Shown here piece by piece: positions 2,679-63,497 of a stretch of DNA of 64,000 nt. Origin of the DNA: a virus (taxonomy: Duplodnaviria; Heunggongvirae; Uroviricota; Caudoviricetes). The DNA lies in IMG/VR virus record IMGVR_UViG_2690316311_000019; one strand, 5' to 3'. Numbering within the stretch: position 1 is the first letter of the stretch; each line of letters opens with the position of its first letter. Made by a program: the position numbers and the translations under genes. A model generated the notes under the pieces. The model was not told the DNA's origin, searched no databases, and was given only the letters and a program-made list of their open reading frames with translations.

Positions 2679-2884
2679 GCGTTTTCTTTTCAGCGTAACA
2701 GCGGTGCTTAACAGCACTTTGGGTACAGTTCCACGAATTTACGGGTATATCCCGTCATGCTGAAGGCGCTAATCACGCTGGAAGCCAGGGTTATGCATCC
2801 CCTGTTACCGAATTGCAGCCAGGGCGCGGTGCGCCGAAAAGCATACGGAGGTGGAAGCCCTCGCCGGAGACGTACCCGGCAAGT

Positions 2885-2959
2885 GATGGTGTAGCTCAGC
2901 GGTAGAGCAGTTGGCTGTTAACCAACTGGTCGGTAGTTCGAATCCACCCACCATCGCCA
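2885..2959 (+). tRNA. tRNA-Asn (anticodon GTT)
   Basis: Cloverleaf read by hand: acceptor GATGGTG/CACCATC, D-arm GCTC-AGCGGTA-GAGC, anticodon stem GTTGG/CCAAC with loop CTGTTAA, T-loop TTCGAAT, discriminator G + CCA. Confidence 0.8.
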
Positions 2960-2964
2960 CTTTA

Positions 2965-3051
2965 GGGGAGTTAGTCCGTAGGGGTAGCGGGGTAGACTGT
3001 AAATCTACTGTCATTGCGACTCGGGTGGTTCGACTCCATCACTCCCCACCA
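2965..3051 (+). tRNA. Type-II (long variable arm) tRNA-Tyr-like, anticodon GTA; D-arm pairing irregular, may be a pseudo-tRNA
   Basis: Acceptor GGGGAGT/ACTCCCC + A + CCA; anticodon stem GTAGA/TCTAC with loop CTGTAAA; variable arm and T-arm resemble E. coli tRNA-Tyr. Confidence 0.5.
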
Positions 3052-3055
3052 CATT

Positions 3056-3131
3056 GCCGATTTAGCTCAGTTGGTAGAGCAGTCGCTTTGTAAGCGAATG
3101 GTCAGCGGTTCGATCCCGTTAATCGGCACCA
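3056..3131 (+). tRNA. tRNA-Thr (anticodon TGT)
   Basis: Acceptor GCCGATT/AATCGGC, D-arm GCTC-AGTTGGTA-GAGC, anticodon loop TTTGTAA, T-loop TTCGATC, CCA end. Confidence 0.75.
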
Positions 3132-3135
3132 ACAT

Positions 3136-3210
3136 AACAGGTAAGAGCATTCTCCCTTATGGGGCCTGGCTTAAATGCATCGAGTGCTCTTACCGTTGTG
3201 ATGAAGTGCA
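3136..3210 (+). repeat. Hairpin element E1 (arms ACAGGTAAGAGCATTCTC / GAGTGCTCTTACC, conserved 3' tail GTTGTGATGAAGTGCAG)
   Basis: Immediately downstream of tRNA-Thr; arm and tail shared with E2/E3. Confidence 0.5.
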
Positions 3211-3506
3211 GATCTTAGAAGCAACCAGAAGATAAGCATCTGGCTTCACAACATAAACCGCAGGAACGACCAATAAACGGTAGTCCGTATGGAGAACACC
3301 CCGTTGAGGAAGAGGCCTGGCCGGAACCGTAACCGGCGACTGGTAATGTGTGTAAATGGAGCGAAATATGTGGGCGTTTAACGGGATACGGGTTGTAACA
3401 GCGATTATTAACGGCGAACTTAAGTATTCACGTTTCGAGACAAATGAACGTGATGGGAAATGTATTGGTGTGCGGTTAGTAAGAGAATACGCATAACAAC
3501 TACAAC

Positions 3507-3606
3507 GTTGAGAACACTGGCGTAACGGGGTCATATCCCAATCTACGAATAAATGTTGCGTTGCCGCGTGACAACCAGTGTTCTCAACATTGTGGTGAAT
3601 GCACAG
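3507..3606 (+). repeat. Hairpin element E2 (perfect 14-bp stem GTTGAGAACACTGG / CCAGTGTTCTCAAC; loop contains GTAACGGGGTCATATCCCAATCTAC; tail ATTGTGGTGAATGCACAGG)
   Basis: Loop motif and tail shared with E3. Confidence 0.5.
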
Positions 3607-3778
3607 GCTGATGTGCCGCAACTACAGTAGTGCGCGCTTTGCGGGGCTTGCTACAACCCTGTGTCGGAGTTCAGCACCGACCATCACAGTTTGATTCTCT
3701 GGCATGAGCATAACGCTGAAATAAGTCCAGTCTGGTGCGGTCTGATCACCCGCCGTTAGCTCCACGAAACGGAGCACG

Positions 3779-3864
3779 TAACAGGTAAGAGCATTCTCCT
3801 GTAACGGGTTCATATCCCAATCTACAGGTCCACCAAGAATGCTCTTTCCGTTGCGGTGAATGCG
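3779..3864 (+). repeat. Hairpin element E3 (arms of E1 + loop motif of E2; tail GTTGCGGTGAATGCGG)
   Basis: AACAGGTAAGAGCATTCTCC ... GTAACGGGTTCATATCCCAATCTAC ... GAATGCTCTTTCC. Confidence 0.5.
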
Positions 3865-4004
3865 GCTAAGCGCACGCGGGGAAATGGTTATATCTGTCCA
3901 TTATTTCTCCTTGTTTCCACGTCCACGGTGGATAACCAGCCAAAGGACACCGGGAGGAACCCGGCACCGCAGCTTTTTTATTCGTTAAATAATGGAGTGA
4001 GAGG

Positions 4005-4241
4005 ATGCAGAACAATCCGAACAAATGTCGAACGCTATGGGTGCGGTTATATATTTATGCCGTCCTCTGTTTGATTGTGTCACTGGTTCTGTATGTTTGG
4101 CTTTTGCCAAATATGATCTCATCTAACAGCACAATACTTGTATTGTTGGGAGTCCTTCTCGCGCTCATTTACCCGGCTTTCGCAGTAGTCTTTTTTCGTG
4201 AAAAAACCAGGAAATTAATTAATGAAAAAAACGTTGATTAG
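4005..4241 (+). CDS. upl: Small two-helix membrane protein upstream of plp
   Basis: 78-aa hydrophobic ORF with GAGAGG RBS; position immediately upstream of lipoprotein gene. Confidence 0.5.
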   Translation: MQNNPNKCRTLWVRLYIYAVLCLIVSLVLYVWLLPNMISSNSTILVLLGVLLALIYPAFAVVFFREKTRKLINEKNVD

Positions 4242-5049
4242 TGCAGCGATTATTTTGGGTTCTTTATGTCTGACCGGATGCGATCGGGTAGAGCCAGGTA
4301 ACGTAGGGATCAAAGTAAATAAGCTGGGGGATGATAAAGGTATCGGTGAAGTAGTTGGCGTTGGTCGCTACTGGACAGGCTTGAATACTGAAGTTTATAT
4401 CTTCCCGACCTTTAAGCAAATGAAGACATACGATGAGCCGTTCAGCTTCCAGATGAGCGACGGAACAACCATTGGTTACCACATCGGCGTAGCCTACAAG
4501 GTTGATCCAGCAAAAGTCACAACGGTATTTCAGACCTATCGCAAAGGTGTAGATGATATTACTGATACCGATCTACGCCAGAAGGTTGCAGATGCTCTGA
4601 ACCGATTAGCCAGCAAAATGACCACCGACAAATTTATCGACGGTGGCAAATCTGAATTGCTTGATGCAGCCCTTAAAGACATTCAGGAAGAAATGACGCC
4701 AATCGGCATTCAGGTGATGAGCCTCTCTTATGTAGGTAAGCCAGAATACCCGCCAACAGTTATTGACAGTATTAACGCCAAAGTCACGGCAAACCAAAAA
4801 ACCCTGCAACGCGAGCAAGAGGTCAAACAACGTGAAGCAGAGGCCAACATGCTGCGCGCGGAAGCTGCCGGACAGGCTGATGCTATTCGCACAAAAGCCC
4901 AGGCCGAAGCTGATGCCATTCGTTTACGTGGTGAAGCTCTGCGCCAGAACCCCGGTGTTATGGACTTGGAAGCGATCAACAAATGGAACGGTACATTACC
5001 GCAGTATATGACCAGTAATACCGCTGTTCCGTTTGTTCCGGTGAAATAA
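4222..5049 (+). CDS. plp: Lipoprotein, SPFH/band-7-like
   Basis: Lipobox LCLTGC after signal peptide; 275 aa. Confidence 0.65.
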   Translation: MKKTLISAAIILGSLCLTGCDRVEPGNVGIKVNKLGDDKGIGEVVGVGRYWTGLNTEVYIFPTFKQMKTYDEPFSFQMSDGTTIGYHIGVAYKVDPAKVTTVFQTYRKGVDDITDTDLRQKVADALNRLASKMTTDKFIDGGKSELLDAALKDIQEEMTPIGIQVMSLSYVGKPEYPPTVIDSINAKVTANQKTLQREQEVKQREAEANMLRAEAAGQADAIRTKAQAEADAIRLRGEALRQNPGVMDLEAINKWNGTLPQYMTSNTAVPFVPVK

Positions 5050-5076
5050 AAGCGTAAGCAAAATTGGCAGTAATCC

Positions 5077-5152
5077 GGCCCTTTAGCTCAGTGGTTAGAG
5101 CTGGCGACTCATAATCGCACGGTCACCGGTTCAAGTCCGGTAGGGGCCACCA
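5077..5152 (+). tRNA. tRNA-Ile2-like (anticodon CAT, ileX-type, lysidine-decoding candidate)
   Basis: Acceptor GGCCCTT/AGGGGCC, anticodon loop CTCATAA, T-loop TTCAAGT, ACCA end; near-identical architecture to E. coli ileX. Confidence 0.7.
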
Positions 5153-5426
5153 TATTTGGTTGTAACACGGCGTCTGGCACATGCGTCGTTAGCGGTCTGG
5201 TGACGTTAAAGGGGTAACCTTTCCCCTAGCTCAGGCAACAAACCAGGTAGCCGGAATGTGCAAGCCCCGTTCATAGCGTCGGACTGCGGATTCACCATCC
5301 TGGCGATTCGGTGTGACAACCGGGAAGAGTCCGGCGCATTAATCCTGATTTTCTGGTGATGACTCATATCGTTAGGAGTGATTTGAGTATGCCGATTATA
5401 TCTGACATTCAGCACGCCTGGGTGGA

Positions 5427-6797
5427 GTGCTAATGTCTGCATCCCCTCTTGAATCCATGCCAAATTCCCTTAGTGCAGAACAAGCTGTACTTGGTGGCTT
5501 AATGCTTGATAACTGCCGCTGGGATGAAGTTGCAGATCGTATAGTTGCTGATGATTTTTATACCAGTGCTCATCGTGAAATTTTCAGTGAGATGGAGAGG
5601 TTATTAAGTCATGGCAAACCGATTGATTTGATAACACTTGCTGAAGCACTTGAACAGAACGGTAAATTAGAACGCGCCGGTGGTTTTGCGTACCTTGCGG
5701 AGATGTCAAAGAACACGCCCAGCGCGGCAAATATTTGTGCTTATGCGGATATCGTTCGTGAACGCGCGGTTGTTCGTGAAATGATTTCCGTCGCAAATGA
5801 AATAGCTGAAGCTGGATATGCGCAGGATGGCAGGGGCAGCAATGAATTGCTGGATATGGCCGAGCGCCGCGTTTTTGAAATAGCTGAAAAACGACAAAAG
5901 AGCGGTAGTGGTCCAAAAGATATCGCCAGCATTCTCGATGCAACGGTATCTCGCATAGAAGAGTTGTTTCAGCGACCGCATGATGGTGTAACGGGGCTTG
6001 ATACCGGATTTACCGATCTCAATAAGAAGACGGCAGGACTTCAGGCGTCCGATCTCATTATTGTCGCCGCCCGCCCATCGATGGGGAAGACTACGTTTGC
6101 GATGAATCTCGTCGAAAATGCCGCAGTCCGTAACGATAAGCCCGTATTGGTTTTTAGCCTTGAGATGCCGAGCCACCAACTGATGATGCGCTCACTGGCT
6201 TCTCTTGCACGCGTTGATCAGACTCGTATTCGAACAGGGCAACTTAACGACGAGGATTGGGCGCGGGTTTCTGGCGCAATGGGGATTCTGTTGGACAAGC
6301 AGAATATTTTTATTGATGACTCAAGCGCCCTGACACCTACAGAGCTTCGTTCCCGCGCTCGTCGTGTTTATAAAGAAAATGGTGGTTTGAGCATGATTAT
6401 GATCGACTACCTGCAACTTATGCGCGTCCCCGAGCTGCAAGATAACCGAACGCTGGAAATTGCCGAGATTTCTCGCTCACTGAAGGCTTTGGCGAAGGAA
6501 TTACAAGTACCGGTGGTGGCATTGTCACAACTTAATCGATCGCTTGAACAGCGTGCGGACAAACGACCGGTAAATTCAGATTTACGTGAATCAGGAGCAA
6601 TTGAGCAGGACGCAGACCTGATCATGTTTCTGTATCGCGACGAAGTTTATCACCCGGATAGCGAAATGAAGGGCATTGCCGAGGTAATTATCGGAAAGCA
6701 ACGAAATGGCCCAATTGGCACGGTGAGATTGGCTTTTAACGGCCAATACTCACGGTTTGATAACTATGCTGGTGCTGACTGGCAAGAGGATTATTAA
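5427..6797 (+). CDS. ban: Replicative DNA helicase, DnaB family (Ban)
   Basis: 456 aa; Walker A PSMGKTTFAMN, DnaB motifs (SLEM, ALSQLNR, IEQDADLIMFLYRDE). Confidence 0.85.
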   Translation: MLMSASPLESMPNSLSAEQAVLGGLMLDNCRWDEVADRIVADDFYTSAHREIFSEMERLLSHGKPIDLITLAEALEQNGKLERAGGFAYLAEMSKNTPSAANICAYADIVRERAVVREMISVANEIAEAGYAQDGRGSNELLDMAERRVFEIAEKRQKSGSGPKDIASILDATVSRIEELFQRPHDGVTGLDTGFTDLNKKTAGLQASDLIIVAARPSMGKTTFAMNLVENAAVRNDKPVLVFSLEMPSHQLMMRSLASLARVDQTRIRTGQLNDEDWARVSGAMGILLDKQNIFIDDSSALTPTELRSRARRVYKENGGLSMIMIDYLQLMRVPELQDNRTLEIAEISRSLKALAKELQVPVVALSQLNRSLEQRADKRPVNSDLRESGAIEQDADLIMFLYRDEVYHPDSEMKGIAEVIIGKQRNGPIGTVRLAFNGQYSRFDNYAGADWQEDY

Positions 6798-7841: not shown

Positions 7842-10988
<3,147 letters not shown>

Positions 10989-36325: not shown

Positions 36326-37357
36326 ATGTCCAATTTACTGACCGTACACCAAAATTTGCCTGCATTGCCGGTCGAGGCAACGAGTGATGAGGTTCGCAAG
36401 AACCTGATGGATATGTTCAGGGATCGCCAGGCGTTTTCTGAGCATACCTGGAAAATGCTTCTGTCCGTTTGCCGGTCATGGGCGGCTTGGTGCAAGTTGA
36501 ATAACCGGAAATGGTTTCCCGCAGAACCTGAAGATGTTCGCGATTATCTTCTATATCTTCAGGCGCGCGGTCTGGCAGTAAAAACTATCCAGCAACATTT
36601 GGGCCAGCTAAACATGCTTCATCGGCGGTCCGGGCTGCCACGACCAAGTGACAGCAACGCTGTTTCACTGGTCATGCGGCGGATCCGAAAAGAAAACGTT
36701 GATGCCGGTGAACGTGCAAAACAGGCACTAGCGTTCGAACGCACTGATTTCGACCAGGTTCGTTCACTCATGGAAAATAGCGATCGCTGCCAGGATATAC
36801 GTAATCTGGCATTTCTGGGGATTGCTTATAACACCCTGTTACGTATAGCCGAAATTGCCAGGATCAGGGTTAAAGATATCTCACGTACTGACGGTGGGAG
36901 AATGTTAATCCATATTGGCAGAACGAAAACGCTGGTTAGCACCGCAGGTGTAGAGAAGGCACTTAGCCTGGGGGTAACTAAACTGGTCGAGCGATGGATT
37001 TCTGTCTCTGGTGTGGCTGATGATCCGAATAACTACTTGTTTTGCCGGGTCAGAAAAAATGGTGTTGCCTCGCCATCATCCACCAGCCAGCTATCAACTC
37101 GCGCCCTGGAAGGGATTTTTGAAGCAACTCACCGATTGATTTACGGGGCTAAGGATGACTCTGGTCAGAGGTACCTGGCCTGGTCTGGACACAGTGCCCG
37201 TGTCGGAGCCGCGCGAGATATGGCCCGCGCCGGAGTTTCAATACCGGAGATCATGCAAGCTGGTGGCTGGACCAACGTAAATATTGTCATGAACTATATC
37301 CGTAATCTGGATAGTGAAACGGGGGCAATGGTGCGCCTGCTGGAAGATGGTGATTAG
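36326..37357 (+). CDS. cre: Cre tyrosine recombinase
   Basis: 343 aa, MSNLLTVHQNLPALPV...; differs from canonical P1 Cre at a few positions. Confidence 0.95.
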   Translation: MSNLLTVHQNLPALPVEATSDEVRKNLMDMFRDRQAFSEHTWKMLLSVCRSWAAWCKLNNRKWFPAEPEDVRDYLLYLQARGLAVKTIQQHLGQLNMLHRRSGLPRPSDSNAVSLVMRRIRKENVDAGERAKQALAFERTDFDQVRSLMENSDRCQDIRNLAFLGIAYNTLLRIAEIARIRVKDISRTDGGRMLIHIGRTKTLVSTAGVEKALSLGVTKLVERWISVSGVADDPNNYLFCRVRKNGVASPSSTSQLSTRALEGIFEATHRLIYGAKDDSGQRYLAWSGHSARVGAARDMARAGVSIPEIMQAGGWTNVNIVMNYIRNLDSETGAMVRLLEDGD

Positions 37358-38569: not shown

Positions 38570-39358
38570 GTGACTTCAGTCAGAATCATCACACGCCCGG
38601 TACGGATGGATCCCTTTTCAAATATTCCATGGACGGCACAGTCTGAGTACCGGGCGCTACCTTCAGTTGTATTGCTAAGCCGCCGCTGGTGGCTTTTCTT
38701 TTTTGTAGGGGGCGCTATGGATAAGAAAATATGCGTTGTTTCGATGAGCGTCGGCAAACCGGCGTCAATGACTGCTGCATGGATCAATAACGAGCTGATA
38801 ATGGCTGAGCGGACCAGCTACCCTGAACGCCGCCGCGATATGGAACTCCAGCTGCTGCGCGAATTGCGAGAAAAAGAGGAAAAGGGTTTTATCGTGCTGG
38901 TGGAAGAGGAAAACAGCTTTATTACTGGTCGAGTTGGCCAGCGTGTAAGGTTGCGCGATCCCTTCATGAACAGCAGGCCGGTACTAATTGAGGCAATGCA
39001 GATTTATAAGGAGCTGGAACGCCAGAAAGCAATCAAGTTACCGCGCAAGGAATCCGGCAAATACATCCTTCACAAAAGCATCTTCGATTCCGAACACGAT
39101 AAAAAAGGCGATGAATTTTTCAACATCAACTGGAGCGAAATAACGACAGAACATGTTCTGACGTTACTATGTTGCTTTGCGACGGAATACAACAACGTTG
39201 CCAGCGCCGACTACATCAGGGCAATGGCTGGAGAAGTTGAGGCCAATCAGGATACGTCGTTACTAAGTCCCCTAGTGAATATAATTCAAGCTACTCATGA
39301 AATTGCCGCGCGGAAAGTGCCTAAAGGTTCATTAACTGGTAAAGATAATTATCTTTAA
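38570..39358 (+). CDS. mat: Hypothetical protein in mat position (alternative start 38717)
   Basis: 262-aa ORF downstream of ref. Confidence 0.4.
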   Translation: MTSVRIITRPVRMDPFSNIPWTAQSEYRALPSVVLLSRRWWLFFFVGGAMDKKICVVSMSVGKPASMTAAWINNELIMAERTSYPERRRDMELQLLRELREKEEKGFIVLVEEENSFITGRVGQRVRLRDPFMNSRPVLIEAMQIYKELERQKAIKLPRKESGKYILHKSIFDSEHDKKGDEFFNINWSEITTEHVLTLLCCFATEYNNVASADYIRAMAGEVEANQDTSLLSPLVNIIQATHEIAARKVPKGSLTGKDNYL

Positions 39359-39360
39359 AC

Positions 39361-39390
39361 TTATTGGGCGCTAACTATGCGCCCATTATA
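39361..39390. terminator. Bidirectional hairpin terminator (GGGCGC-TAACTAT-GCGCCC)
   Basis: Between convergent mat and PIN-like gene. Confidence 0.5.
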
Positions 39391-40341
39391 CTAATCAATA
39401 AATACACGGAATGTCTCCAGCATCCCTTCAGGATCTTTATCCTCGTCACCTAATGATATTAGTCTTCTGGCAAGAAGTTTCACATCATCATCATCTTTGA
39501 TGTAACCAACCTGATCATTTTCAAAATAAATATCAATTATTTTTAGGATTTGCTCTTGTGTAAAGTGAGTGAGCTTTAATAATTTTGCTACAACTCGATG
39601 TGTTGTAGCAAAACTGCCAGAGTGTCGTAATTCATCTATAGTGAGATTAACTTCCATTTCCACCAAGTTACTAGCTTGAGGAAAGTGCTCGCCTATAAAC
39701 TCTGATAAGCGGGAATAGATATGTGGTTCTGAATTTTTCTTTTTTTTCCACTCATGCTTCAAATATTCATTCATATCATCCTTTATAAAGGCACTTTTAT
39801 AATCACCATCTTCAGTTATGATATATATATCCTCACCGTCTGGTATCGCTTTTAGCAAACATTCCCAATTAACTGCGTCACCATATGATTTATTTTTGCC
39901 TGGCGGGTTTCCAAGATCAAATCGAAGTTTCCCCTTATCTATTGTTTCATCATCAGCCTCTATTTTAGATGCTGCATCAAAAATCCTTTTAATTACAATA
40001 TCGGCAGCCAAAGCCTCCTCTTTAAACAATTTCTGGATATCTGTAATAATTTCATTCTTTAACCTACCTGCTTCTATAACCTTATCATTAAATTGTGAAT
40101 GCTTTTCATGTTGCCTAAAAATCTGGGGAAGCGCGGGCTTATAATCTTTTGTTATTTCCTTTATGGTTTCAGAGAGAACTTTAGAACGATTTCTCCAGAA
40201 CTCATTCACTAAAAGCTCTGGTAACCAAAGTTTTAAACGACCATATTGATGTAAGGCAAATACTTTATCCAGCTCATCTAGTTTATCTCTACCCATCCTG
40301 TAAAATTCTAAATATAGATTTGTATCAATAAAAACATTCAT
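39391..40341 (-). CDS. PIN-like nuclease-fold protein, AT-rich cargo gene in the res/mod slot (candidate defence / exclusion gene)
   Basis: N-terminus MNVFIDTNLYLEF, later acidic motifs DIYIITEDGDY; 316 aa; GAGGA RBS; visibly lower G+C than flanks. Confidence 0.55.
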   Translation of the reverse strand: MNVFIDTNLYLEFYRMGRDKLDELDKVFALHQYGRLKLWLPELLVNEFWRNRSKVLSETIKEITKDYKPALPQIFRQHEKHSQFNDKVIEAGRLKNEIITDIQKLFKEEALAADIVIKRIFDAASKIEADDETIDKGKLRFDLGNPPGKNKSYGDAVNWECLLKAIPDGEDIYIITEDGDYKSAFIKDDMNEYLKHEWKKKKNSEPHIYSRLSEFIGEHFPQASNLVEMEVNLTIDELRHSGSFATTHRVVAKLLKLTHFTQEQILKIIDIYFENDQVGYIKDDDDVKLLARRLISLGDEDKDPEGMLETFRVFID

Positions 40342-40402
40342 ATCACATCCTCATTAAGAGTAATTTAGGCCACTCTAAAAAATAAAGTGACCTAACAGGA
40401 AA

Positions 40403-40651
40403 TCAATCAGCATTCAGGAGCAATGCGTTATCTATGATGATCTGCTCCCATTCTTCGAATGCCCGGTCGCGGACGCCCTGGGGAACGCTGTTAGTTTTGA
40501 AATCGACGACCGTACGCCATTTCCCGTCCGGACGGTACATGCGCAGAGCTTTACTTCCCCCTTCCCTGCGCACCTCAACGTTATGCTTATCAGCAAACTC
40601 TTGTAATGCTCGTAGCGTCCCATGCTTTACTGTGTAGTATCGCTTTTTCAA
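40403..40651 (-). CDS. lxc: Small regulatory protein in lxc position
   Basis: 82-aa ORF downstream of ulx and darB. Confidence 0.45.
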   Translation of the reverse strand: MKKRYYTVKHGTLRALQEFADKHNVEVRREGGSKALRMYRPDGKWRTVVDFKTNSVPQGVRDRAFEEWEQIIIDNALLLNAD

Positions 40652-61221: not shown

Positions 61222-61547
61222 TTCCCACCTCCCTTTTTCACCAAACTTGTAAGAACATTCAGAATGCTATCGATATTCACTCGTTTCATCCCTGAAATCA
61301 CCTCATGACCGTTATTGCTGGCTATCGTTACCATTAAGTACGTAATTGATAACTCCCAGCCCTCGTGTTGCCCCAATAGGTACGCCACCGCGCCAGCTGT
61401 CACTGCAACAAAGATCTCCGTAACCAATCCCAACAAATTGCCAGACTGGCGACCGTCTCGGACATCCATCAGGAACGTGCCTATCCCACCAATTACTGAA
61501 AGCAGGAGCGCAATAGCAACTGGAGCTAATTCCTGTGTGTCAAGCAC
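61218..61547 (-). CDS. lydA: Holin
   Basis: 109 aa, two hydrophobic helices, charged C-terminus; GTG start with AGGAGGG RBS. Confidence 0.6.
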   Translation of the reverse strand: MLDTQELAPVAIALLLSVIGGIGTFLMDVRDGRQSGNLLGLVTEIFVAVTAGAVAYLLGQHEGWELSITYLMVTIASNNGHEVISGMKRVNIDSILNVLTSLVKKGGGK

Positions 61548-62302
61548 AAGTTCCCTCCTACGTTGTCAGGAGGTAATGGTATGCAAAGTAACTTCTCAAC
61601 CGGTCATGCAAAGACAACAAGCGGAAAAAGAAAAGCAAAGCCTGCTACAGCTCGTCAGGGATAAAACTCAGCTCTGGGACTCACAGTTACGGCTAGGCAT
61701 TATTTCCGTTCAGGGTAAACAAAAATTAACCGAGTGGATTCTCTATGCGCAGAAAGTCGAATCCACGGATACCTCCATCCTTCCAGTAACGTTTCCCGAA
61801 AAGCCGGAATGAGGAAAGGCCCGGAATCGGGCCTTAATTAATATCTATAAGCTCAACAAATAAGAGCTAACAATTTTGTTAATTTCCTCTGGAAATAATG
61901 CATTGTGCTTATATATACCTGAAGCTATATTAAAGAGCGTCATGTAAAAAATAAACCAATCAATTAAATCTATTTTCAACAAACAAGTCAAAATTTTTAA
62001 CAGATATGTATAGAAATGGCAAGCCATAAATTAATAATGACATCCTTAATAAGTCTAAAGAAACACTAAATAGATAAAATATAAATTATTACATCCAAAA
62101 ATATAGAAAGTGTTGGCAATCTTGCAACTCATTATCAATACAATATTGACATCCCTTTAGCGCTCAGTTTAAAATTAACATTTGTGTTTACATTGTGCGT
62201 TGATTTAGTTTAGCAGGAACGCAGTAACACACTGATGATTATTGTTTTAATTATAATGTCAATATATAAACATAGAAACCAAAAAATATAGGCAGTTGCA
62301 AT

Positions 62303-62875
62303 ATGTTATGTTACTTAATAGCTATTCACTTTGTCATCTTCGGGAATTCAAAAGCTCTATTGAGCTACTGGATGGCTGAAATCATCAGGCGTGAAAAAAT
62401 GGATGTTTGGCGACTATTAAGAGAGAAGAAGCAGCGCAATCGGAATTTCCTTTTCTGGTGGAGACTGGCTAATGAAATGTATATTAATGGCAATAAATTA
62501 CATAAGAAAGCAGCCAGAAAGTTAAACAATAATATAATTAACAGATTTGGTTGCGAAATTGGATTGGGCGCAAATATTGGAAAAGGTTTAACAATTCCCC
62601 ATCATACTGGAATTGTTGTTCATTTTGCTGTTGATGCTGGTGAAAATCTGGTTTTGCGACAGAATACTACCATTGGACAGGTAGATGGTGACATGCCTGG
62701 TTCAAGAGTAAAAATTGGTAATAACGTTGATATCGGAGCTAATTGTTGCATCATTGGATTATCACGTAAAATTGGGGATAATGTAAAAATAGGTGCAATG
62801 TCTTTTATAAATAAAGATATACCATCGAACTGCACATATATAACAAAAAAGAGCGGTGTTGTATTGTATAAATAG
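62303..62875 (+). CDS. Hexapeptide-repeat acetyltransferase (serine-O-acetyltransferase / WcaB-like), AT-rich cargo; true start may be 62372 or 62399
   Basis: Left-handed beta-helix repeats: FGCEIGLGANIGKGLTIPHHTGIVV...IGNNVDIGANCCII...IGDNVKIGAMSFI. Confidence 0.6.
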   Translation: MLCYLIAIHFVIFGNSKALLSYWMAEIIRREKMDVWRLLREKKQRNRNFLFWWRLANEMYINGNKLHKKAARKLNNNIINRFGCEIGLGANIGKGLTIPHHTGIVVHFAVDAGENLVLRQNTTIGQVDGDMPGSRVKIGNNVDIGANCCIIGLSRKIGDNVKIGAMSFINKDIPSNCTYITKKSGVVLYK

Positions 62876-62883
62876 AGTACATG

Positions 62884-62911
62884 AAGCCATCAATATTTCT
62901 ATCGATGGCTT
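62884..62911. terminator. Bidirectional hairpin (AAGCCATC-loop-GATGGCTT) between convergent acetyltransferase and U
   Basis: 8-bp stem, T-rich 3' flank. Confidence 0.45.
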
Positions 62912-62918
62912 TATCCTT

Positions 62919-63496
62919 TTATTGCGGGGCGACTGGCCACTCAACATCCGATGCTACTGTTGTATCAACACGATTCAACAATACCCGATATGTCTTCCAT
63001 GCAGTCAGTAACGATGCCTCTTCCTCCGTCGCAATATCCAAATCTACGGCATCCTGAAGTGGCGCAATATGCTCACTGGCCATCTGCATCAGGCTGTTTT
63101 TTGTTTCTTCCGCCTTCCGGATCCGGAACAGTTTTTCTGCTTCTGCATCTTTCACCCAGGCTGTGCCGTTCCACTTCTGAAACTCCCCTTCCGGGGATAA
63201 CCAGGTGACATTTTCCGGTAATGGGCCAAGTTCAGAAATAAATAACGCGTCGCCGGAAGCCACGTCATAGACGGTTTTTCCCCGATGGTCTTCAACGAGA
63301 TTCCACGATGCCTCATCACTGTTGAAAACGGCCACGAAGCCAGCCGGAATATCTGGCGGGGCAATATCGGTACTGTTTGCAGGCAGACCTGTATGAGGTG
63401 GAATGTATGCATCACCTTCACCAATAAACTCATTGGTTCCAGCCAGTAGATTATAAATTTTTATGGTCCGTGATTGTTCACTCATTCTGAATGTCA

Positions 63497-63497
<1 letters not shown>
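62919..63497 (-). CDS. U: Tail-fibre assembly chaperone
   Basis: 192 aa; Tfa-like; directly downstream of tail-fibre gene. Confidence 0.65.

Follow-up and report, generated by a model that had tools for sequence, protein, structure and literature searches.

Introduction

DARNA, which is the same system as PD-T7-3, combines an N-terminal HEPN domain, a transfer RNA (tRNA) anticodon nuclease with an RX4H motif, with a helical C-terminal domain that binds single-stranded DNA (ssDNA) and needs 'CT' motifs, and it is active as a dodecamer whose trigger is ssDNA made accessible by the ssDNA-binding protein (SSB) of the phage (bioRxiv 10.64898/2026.02.22.705581). The same preprint names the residues that read the 'CT' motif (F368, D372, Q403, W406 and N408), of which F368 stacks on the thymine, D372 reads the cytosine, Q403 reads the thymine and W406 stacks against the third base, and it mentions neither PIN proteins nor homologues. 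In this article, we discuss a gene for a 316-amino-acid (aa) protein in which a PIN nuclease domain is joined to a short helical tail that is quite probably related to the DNA-reading part of DARNA. The gene lies on a stretch of 64,000 nucleotides (nt) from a P1-like (Punavirus) phage-plasmid, IMG/VR record IMGVR_UViG_2690316311_000019, and this whole stretch is what we call the window.

PIN proteins have also joined the validated defence systems, since the DefensePredictor study (Science 2026, PMC13092281) reported two of them, DS-3 and DS-5, the latter consisting of the PIN_12 protein WP_021513009.1 and a DUF5830/AcrIF4-like partner that are both required, with D7A and E44A abolishing defence. 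The PIN_12 family, or DUF4935, had been described earlier as a VapC-group family of monocistronic genes with a helical insert and a function that was not known, within a PIN-like superfamily that includes some DNA nucleases (Matelska et al. 2017, PMC5499597). The supplement of the DefensePredictor study lists a 316-aa protein, WP_033545800.1 (951 nt), as a top-scoring 'predicted novel defense gene' with a log-odds of 14.1, and gives PD-T7-3 as its best HHblits match among known defence proteins (79.6% probability; PMC13092281). This entry is the ~91% (DNA) allele of the gene discussed here and occupies the same place, between mat and lxc, on plasmid NZ_CP041922.1; a defence prediction and a faint link to PD-T7-3 are already public, as a table row without discussion.

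Similarly, the place itself has a history. In P1-like elements, the low-GC res-mod segment has been named a 'highly variable region' (PMC9603915), a 2025 survey found type III restriction-modification (RM), dGTPase, PrrC and CapRel in such elements, and CapRel is triggered by a capsid protein sensed through its C-terminal domain (bioRxiv 10.64898/2026.02.22.705581, introduction). In the literature, we found no paper that calls the mat-lxc slot a defence hotspot or that mentions the PIN gene.

A PIN_12 nuclease with a DARNA-like tail

The protein begins with MNVFIDTNLYLEF, carries DIYIITEDGDY further on, and is named WP_001100381.1 in the E. coli plasmid NZ_CP013030.1, which is 100% identical over the region (phage JL22 is ~91% identical). 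Its residues 3-181 match the Pfam family PF16289 (PIN_12) from end to end, that is, over profile positions 1-172 of 172, scoring 60.7 bits where the cut-off is 32 (E 3e-16), and the Pfam family PIN_8 also matches. An AlphaFold model built from 37 homologues has a predicted local distance difference test score (pLDDT) of 91.4, and the domain has the PIN fold and the four to five conserved acidic active-site residues expected of it. Strands 2 and 3 are separated by a long insert of helices, which takes up residues 42-123. Among the 37 diverse homologues, D6, N8, E47, R52, D114, R140, D155, D178 and D180 are invariant, as is the GNPPGK..GD155 loop, and both the helical insert after strand 2 and the solo gene, which recurs in five other contexts, are traits of the PIN_12 family. 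Searches of PDB sequences with the protein and with the family profile returned nothing meaningful (for the profile, at E <= 10), NCBIfam has no match to the protein, and the sole match in PHROGs is to a family of unknown function. Judged from its sequence, the PIN_12 domain is most likely a metal-dependent VapC-like nuclease and the effector of the protein. A first-pass annotation made from the letters alone had already placed an open reading frame (ORF) of this length, strand, N-terminus and acidic motif here and had read it as a PIN-like nuclease, and the motifs that it singled out do hold the invariant D6 (IDTN) and D178/D180 (TEDGDY). The fold comparison that it proposed gave PIN matches as it expected, but weak ones (Foldseek against PDB, E 0.09 or worse), while the PADLOC search that it also proposed returned partial, C-terminal matches.

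These matches point to the C-terminal module. The first-pass annotation has neither this module nor its link to DARNA, and of all the findings it is this link that tells us most. The PADLOC model PDC-S34 matches at 1.2e-11 (residues 227-298 against profile positions 299-370 of 384) and PD-T7-3 at E 7e-5 (residues 178-281 against profile positions 293-398 of 432), and an AlphaFold2 model of the tail by itself has a pLDDT of 90.9. The DARNA sequence needed for a direct comparison was recovered by turning the residue positions given in the preprint into a degenerate DNA pattern and scanning it over viral contigs, which gave seven in-frame matches, with four matches to an out-of-frame version as random control. 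One in-frame match, on contig L030, encodes a 455-aa protein that has 16 of 16 preprint-named residues at the stated positions, matches the PD-T7-3 model at 3e-168 and is identical to the PDB chains called 'Dandelion' (9wxf, 9wwz and 9wx2). True DARNA proteins match that model over their full length at 1e-149 to 1e-168, whereas the match here is confined to residues 178-281; also, the N-terminus is PIN and not a HEPN domain with RX4H, and hhalign aligns just the C-terminal 86-90 columns.

Aligned with a family of 34 DARNA sequences, the tail of the PIN family scores 40.8 in hhalign (74-77% probability, E 2e-5), pairing residues 229-315 with DARNA 353-447, while none of 40 column-shuffled tail alignments exceeds 22.1 and reversing the alignment gives 15.6. 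The best-conserved residues of the tail coincide in this alignment with the ssDNA contacts of DARNA. S241 (35 of 37 in the PIN family) faces S365 (33 of 34 in the DARNA family), F244 (36 of 37) faces F368 (29 F and 5 Y), N275 (37 of 37) faces N401 (34 of 34) and Q277 (36 of 37) faces Q403 (34 of 34), and position 280, which is W in 25 and Y in 6 members of the PIN family (Y in this protein), faces W406 (16 W and 12 G); the family consensus of the stretch N275-I281 is N-x-Q-V-x-W-I. We regard it as quite probable, from these sequence comparisons, that the ~90-residue tail is homologous to the distal domain of DARNA, and plausible that it has kept the function of sensing ssDNA.

The likeness to DARNA (E. 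coli ECOR30) has two sides. Both are single-protein nucleases borne by a prophage hotspot with no antitoxin, and their last ~90 residues are probably homologous, with the motifs S..F and N-x-Q-h-x-W in common; DARNA, in contrast, is a 455-aa protein with a HEPN RX4H effector instead of a 316-aa protein with a PIN effector, and most of its 297-residue C-terminal domain is missing here. DS-5 likewise uses PIN_12 as a defence effector, and its catalytic residues D7 and E44, without which defence fails, align with D6 and E47, but it takes two genes, its 376-aa PIN protein has an unrelated C-terminal half, hhalign relates it to the present family over the first ~60 residues only (81%), and this locus has no partner gene. 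DS-3, which was compared by description only, likewise consists of one PIN protein, lacks an antitoxin and has been proposed to be auto-inhibited until infection, but it is of the PIN8 type (a working name), 340 aa long, with the PIN fold split between its termini, and its description gave no sign of the DARNA-like tail. CapRel-SJ46, a validated fused toxin-antitoxin defence from the P1-like phage SJ46, sits in the same mat-lxc slot and also joins a toxic enzyme to a C-terminal regulatory or sensor domain in one polypeptide, although its enzyme is an unrelated RelA/SpoT pyrophosphokinase, its orientation is opposite and it responds to a capsid protein. Unlike VapC of the VapBC systems, the PIN protein has a helical insert and a C-terminal module in addition and no VapB beside it: no antitoxin gene adjoins the PIN gene, and the cassette has neither an Rfam match nor a tandem repeat. 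A ToxI-like RNA antitoxin was considered and rejected, given that repeats and Rfam matches are both missing.

Two observations concern DARNA itself. The Dandelion structures comprise a 12-chain entry and separate entries for the HEPN domain and the C-terminal domain, distinct from the DARNA depositions 9tra-9tre, and a second group has apparently solved PD-T7-3 independently. In 359 complete E. coli genomes, the forward cloning primer for DARNA falls within a tail-fibre-assembly gene belonging to P2-like prophages, so DARNA is cargo of a P2 hotspot bounded by this gene and the tail-sheath gene; elsewhere the same hotspot holds a restriction endonuclease or small genes of unknown function. The loci behind this observation are L020 and L021, both on E. 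coli chromosomes, and L030 at 4962-5084 (minus strand).

Distribution of the family and of its tail

Homologues that match over the full length (316-335 aa, with identities as low as 34%) are present in Pantoea, Klebsiella, Serratia, Aeromonas and Vibrio as well as in many Bacteroidota, and relatives lie on 22 viral contigs. Grouped at 50% identity, the PIN_12-tail family forms ~190 close clusters across Enterobacteria, Vibrio, Aeromonas and Bacteroidota. In a distant viral branch (L049-L054, 393-409 aa), the PIN domain and the tail are joined by a low-complexity linker of 40-80 residues rich in Pro, Ala and Gln, and some of its members end in a poly-Pro tail. Furthermore, all 37 family members and 7 viral relatives match PDC-S34 (model PDLC05001; best E 1.6e-16, profile ~296-373 of 384), but with just their C-terminal 72-100 residues and over profile positions 254-378 of 384, never over the full length. 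The N-terminal ~295 positions of the profile stay unmatched and belong to another domain, so in PDC-S34 another N-terminus precedes this tail; for this uncharacterised PADLOC candidate we found no paper. The tail thus appears, by sequence comparison, in at least three architectures. When the tail profile was run against 1.84 billion representatives, 1358 matches were returned, and the 150 listed all belong to the same family or are fragments; a tblastn search of plasmids with the tail gave only 23 known copies.

The homologues are always solo genes with no conserved neighbour and no antitoxin gene alongside. An island in Klebsiella and E. coli carries one with HsdM, AlpA, HNH, an anti-restriction gene, RadC, CbtA/CbeA and Mrr; in Pantoea the homologue lies at the integrase-proximal end of a prophage, in Vibrio in a variable island beside a DUF4011 helicase and in Salegentibacter beside EndoU, YopA and DUF3800 genes, while in Aeromonas its neighbours are housekeeping-like, with no recognisable defence or mobile-element genes. 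Now considering this spread, we venture, as a possibility somewhat short of an even chance, that the ssDNA-reading module of the DARNA type is portable and serves as a sensor recombined with at least three N-terminal domains, namely HEPN, PIN_12 and the PDC-S34 domain, in which case the family would be a widespread, hitherto unrecognised class of ssDNA-activated immune nucleases, with the change of D372 to His or Arg giving another sequence or ligand specificity.

The mat-lxc slot and its cargo

In the window, cre, c8, ref and mat (plus strand) are followed by the 316-aa ORF and then by lxc, ulx and darB, all on the minus strand. The annotated P1 record has mat at 2716-3468, res at 3544-6456 and mod (both minus strand), and lxc at 9750-9998 (minus strand), and P7 has the same layout, which bears out the statement in the first-pass annotation that res and mod fill this interval in P1. 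Here, 61 nt separate lxc from the PIN gene downstream of it on the same strand, and 32 nt separate the stop codon of mat from the ORF, leaving a cassette too small for a second gene. The ORF has a G+C content (GC) of 0.343 (0.274 at third codon positions, GC3), compared with 0.483 for the window, 0.481 for mat, 0.488 for lxc with ulx and 0.521 for darB, and fewer than 1% of 951-bp windows are as low. The identical protein is found on 771 public contigs, and 23 PLSDB plasmids and phage JL22 have the gene in the form of two alleles (>=99% and ~91% DNA identity); between the gene and the JL22 allele the ratio of non-synonymous to synonymous substitution rates (dN/dS) is 0.079. The gene is real, under purifying selection and of foreign composition, and it is most likely horizontally acquired cargo. 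A 108-aa antisense ORF at 39818-40144 was judged spurious because it lies wholly within this conserved, selected ORF.

A 2.5-kb query reaching from mat across the cargo and lxc into ulx found the backbone in 703 plasmid records, of which 22 (~3%) carry the full PIN cassette, and the occupants of the slot (Table 1) were read from a sample of 60 plasmid records and from phage records. Between the 3' end of mat and the stop codon of lxc, the slot holds an RM system, CapRel, a SIR2 protein, a DUF2971 protein, a GNAT acetyltransferase, an EAL and AraC pair, or nothing; like the PIN gene, the SIR2, DUF2971, GNAT and EAL with AraC occupants are uncharacterised, and the EAL and AraC pair also occurs in a record called 'P1 del res del mod' (OP279344). 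The right boundary is exactly the lxc stop codon in every variant. On the left, BLAST breakpoints fall at query positions 657/660 and 718, while JL22, with the same cargo, breaks only at 816, and the tails of mat differ between variants (L002, L003, L005, L006, L008 and L009) with the VP.G.LTGK.N motif kept. Since the mat tail changes with the cargo, cargo exchange recombines inside mat and swaps the C-terminus of Mat.

Much of what the first-pass annotation said about the locus therefore holds: the gene is AT-rich and in all likelihood acquired, it is co-oriented with lxc and directly downstream of it, and the slot is variable across P1-like phage-plasmids. Its proposal of an uncharacterised defence factor stands as that of a candidate, with the score of the ~91% allele as an independent prediction, while the published table row means that the gene had not gone wholly unnoticed. 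The hairpin terminator that it saw on the mat side is half right, in that the hairpin is real (free energy, dG, -14.4 kcal/mol, z -4.5, with none of 200 shuffles equally stable), but its role as a terminator is only plausible, with no U/T tract beside it on either strand and no flag from a terminator scan.

A candidate immune switch and its alternatives

We give an even chance to the whole reading in which the slot cargo is a single-protein abortive-infection nuclease made of a PIN effector and a DARNA-type sensor tail. That the gene serves anti-phage defence is likely, and that ssDNA is the trigger is a more tentative proposition, which we place somewhat below even. On this reading, the prophage-expressed protein would protect its host in the manner of abortive infection, with PIN_12 as the effector and RNA as its most probable substrate, and the 95-residue helical tail would be a regulatory or sensor module reading ssDNA exposed during phage replication. 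It would amount to a DARNA-like switch with a PIN effector in place of HEPN, idle as long as the lysogen is uninfected and activated by a nucleic-acid cue specific to infection. Defence itself, the RNA substrate, the ssDNA trigger and expression in the lysogen are all points that we infer.

Several findings weigh against this. The DARNA link is remote, with ~13-14% identity over the aligned positions; the family tail profile scores only 7.6 bits against DARNA 356-408, the PD-T7-3 model is matched by 1 of the 37 family members, and the profile search of PDB missed Dandelion although it was in the file, so the sequence-to-profile signal is very weak. D372 of DARNA is His or Arg in the PIN family and the invariant R407 is Ile, and therefore the base specificity, or the type of ligand, could differ. 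The C-terminal domain of DARNA also has 297 residues within a HEPN-driven dodecamer, as against 95 residues in this tail. As for the locus, no promoter was identified and no sigma-70-like site is predicted in the 61-nt leader, the GNAT and EAL with AraC cargoes are not recognisably defensive, which makes the slot one for accessory cargo, not for defence genes alone, and for the protein and its close homologues alike the defence role rests on prediction.

The alternative that survives best keeps the defence nuclease but makes the tail an auto-inhibitory, oligomerisation or protein-sensing domain, with the DARNA likeness reduced to a shared helical-repeat scaffold. It would accommodate the lack of conservation at D372 and R407 and the single match to the PD-T7-3 hidden Markov model, and fused toxin-sensor proteins with protein triggers do occur in the same slot (CapRel-SJ46); we nevertheless consider it unlikely, since the residues common to both families (F, N, Q and W) are the base contacts of DARNA, the hhalign score is far beyond the shuffled controls, and one would not expect an N-x-Q to stay invariant in both families if the likeness were purely structural. 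Less probable again is an exclusion nuclease directed at DNA, in which the tail would target ssDNA and the PIN domain would cut the DNA of an invading or replicating phage, giving direct immunity and not RNA-based abortive infection; the homology of the tail to an ssDNA-binding module, the DNA nucleases within the PIN-like superfamily (PMC5499597) and the replacement of a DNA-targeting restriction system in the slot all speak for it, and we hold it to be improbable. Finally, a selfish toxin serving plasmid addiction, or a nuclease of the phage life cycle (host RNA shut-off or anti-defence) that does not protect the host, is the most doubtful of these readings, for although PIN domains are the classic VapBC toxins, the gene is carried by a plasmid prophage and non-defence cargo (GNAT, EAL with AraC) shares its slot, the cassette contains neither an antitoxin gene nor an antitoxin RNA and the homologues have no antitoxin beside them, P1-like elements already have phd-doc among their conserved genes (PMC9603915), homologues sit in non-phage chromosomal islands, and a gene present in ~3% of backbones is not needed for the life cycle.

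Expression signals and neighbouring features

The leader of the PIN gene is specific to this cargo and has, directly after the lxc stop codon, a 13-bp hairpin that is stronger than the one on the mat side and that the first-pass annotation does not mention; together with a short second hairpin, the whole leader folds at dG -20.7 (z -5.0). In the predicted fold this second small hairpin pairs the Shine-Dalgarno GAGGA with upstream bases. This pairing suggests that the nuclease gene may be controlled at translation. The mat-side hairpin differs between slot variants, each of which has its own. A backbone promoter equivalent to P2mod of P1 was considered as the driver of the cargo and dropped because the -10 position is altered here (TGATTT).

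Table 1. Positions of the PIN gene, its parts and its surroundings in the window, followed by the occupants of the mat-lxc slot in other records
Feature	Record	Position	Strand	Remarks
cre	window	36326-37357		
Variable 3' tail of mat, last ~25-43 codons	window	39229..39358	+	co-varies with cargo (seven-variant alignment)
mat, 3' end	window	39358	+	convergent with the PIN gene
GC-rich 7-bp hairpin	window	39365..39385		separates the stop codons of the convergent mat and PIN genes
PIN_12 + C-terminal-module ORF	window	39391..40341	-	complete, 316 aa + stop, ATG start
C-terminal helical module, residues 222-316	window	39394..39678	-	PADLOC, hmmsearch, hhalign, AlphaFold2
Motif N275-D-Q277-V-G-Y280-I281	window	39499..39519	-	aligns with DARNA N401-N402-Q403-C-Y405-W406-R407
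Motif S241-G-S-F244-A-T-T-H248	window	39598..39621	-	aligns with DARNA S365..F368..A371-D372
PIN (VapC-group, PIN_12/DUF4935) nuclease domain, residues 1 to ~221	window	39679..40341	-	
61-nt leader	window	40342..40402	-	from the end of lxc to the start codon
Shine-Dalgarno GAGGA	window	40348-40352	-	downstream of the leader hairpin
13-bp leader hairpin	window	40365-40395		
lxc	window	40403..40651	-	conserved backbone gene; right boundary of the slot
ulx	window	40648-41088	-	
Type III RM (EcoP1I/EcoP7I)	P1, P7			
CapRel	SJ46, 673R5, many plasmids			PDC-S33 match 7e-87
435-aa SIR2 protein	L033	1145-2452		PDC-S25- and ThsA-like
346-aa DUF2971 protein	L008	2138-3178		PDC-S31
202-aa GNAT acetyltransferase	L034	1289-1897		
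EAL + AraC-HTH pair	L009	1725-3299		once interrupted by IS1
Empty slot	RCS47			

Three further features of the window deserve a record. darB (41122-47890, minus strand) is broken up into an ORF of 287 aa (47027-47890) and an overlapping one of 1970 aa (41122-47034), which indicates a frameshift relative to the 2255-aa DarB of P1, and the gene table of the identical plasmid record, which omits pseudogenes, has no darB coding sequence. The lowest GC of the window, down to 0.315, is at ~61400-62900, an island that holds a 190-aa ORF (62303-62875, plus strand) resembling hexapeptide-repeat (LbH) acetyltransferases, with a Pfam Hexapep score under the cut-off (24.6 against 27 bits) and a tail-fibre-assembly-like gene adjoining it (62919-63497); this ORF may represent further cargo, such as an enzyme that modifies a receptor or the O-antigen. 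A third low-GC patch, at ~53650-54850 (~0.37), contains small ORFs of 92-95 aa to which no function was assigned.

Outlook

Whatever its present occupant does, the mat-lxc interval is a one-gene swap site with exact boundaries, present in ~700 sequenced plasmids, many of them from clinical E. coli and Salmonella, and known and candidate immune genes (type III RM, CapRel, SIR2, DUF2971 and PIN) interchange in it, which makes it a convenient natural library for more single-gene systems. If our reading of the PIN gene is right, the principle established for DARNA, sensing of endogenous-type ssDNA made accessible by phage SSB, would extend beyond one HEPN family and the sensor would be exchangeable, and DUF4935/PIN_12, listed as 'function unknown' since 2017, would gain its first function together with a testable mechanism. 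It would also follow that the cargo of this slot affects which phages a lysogen resists, with a bearing on P1 transduction and on phage therapy.

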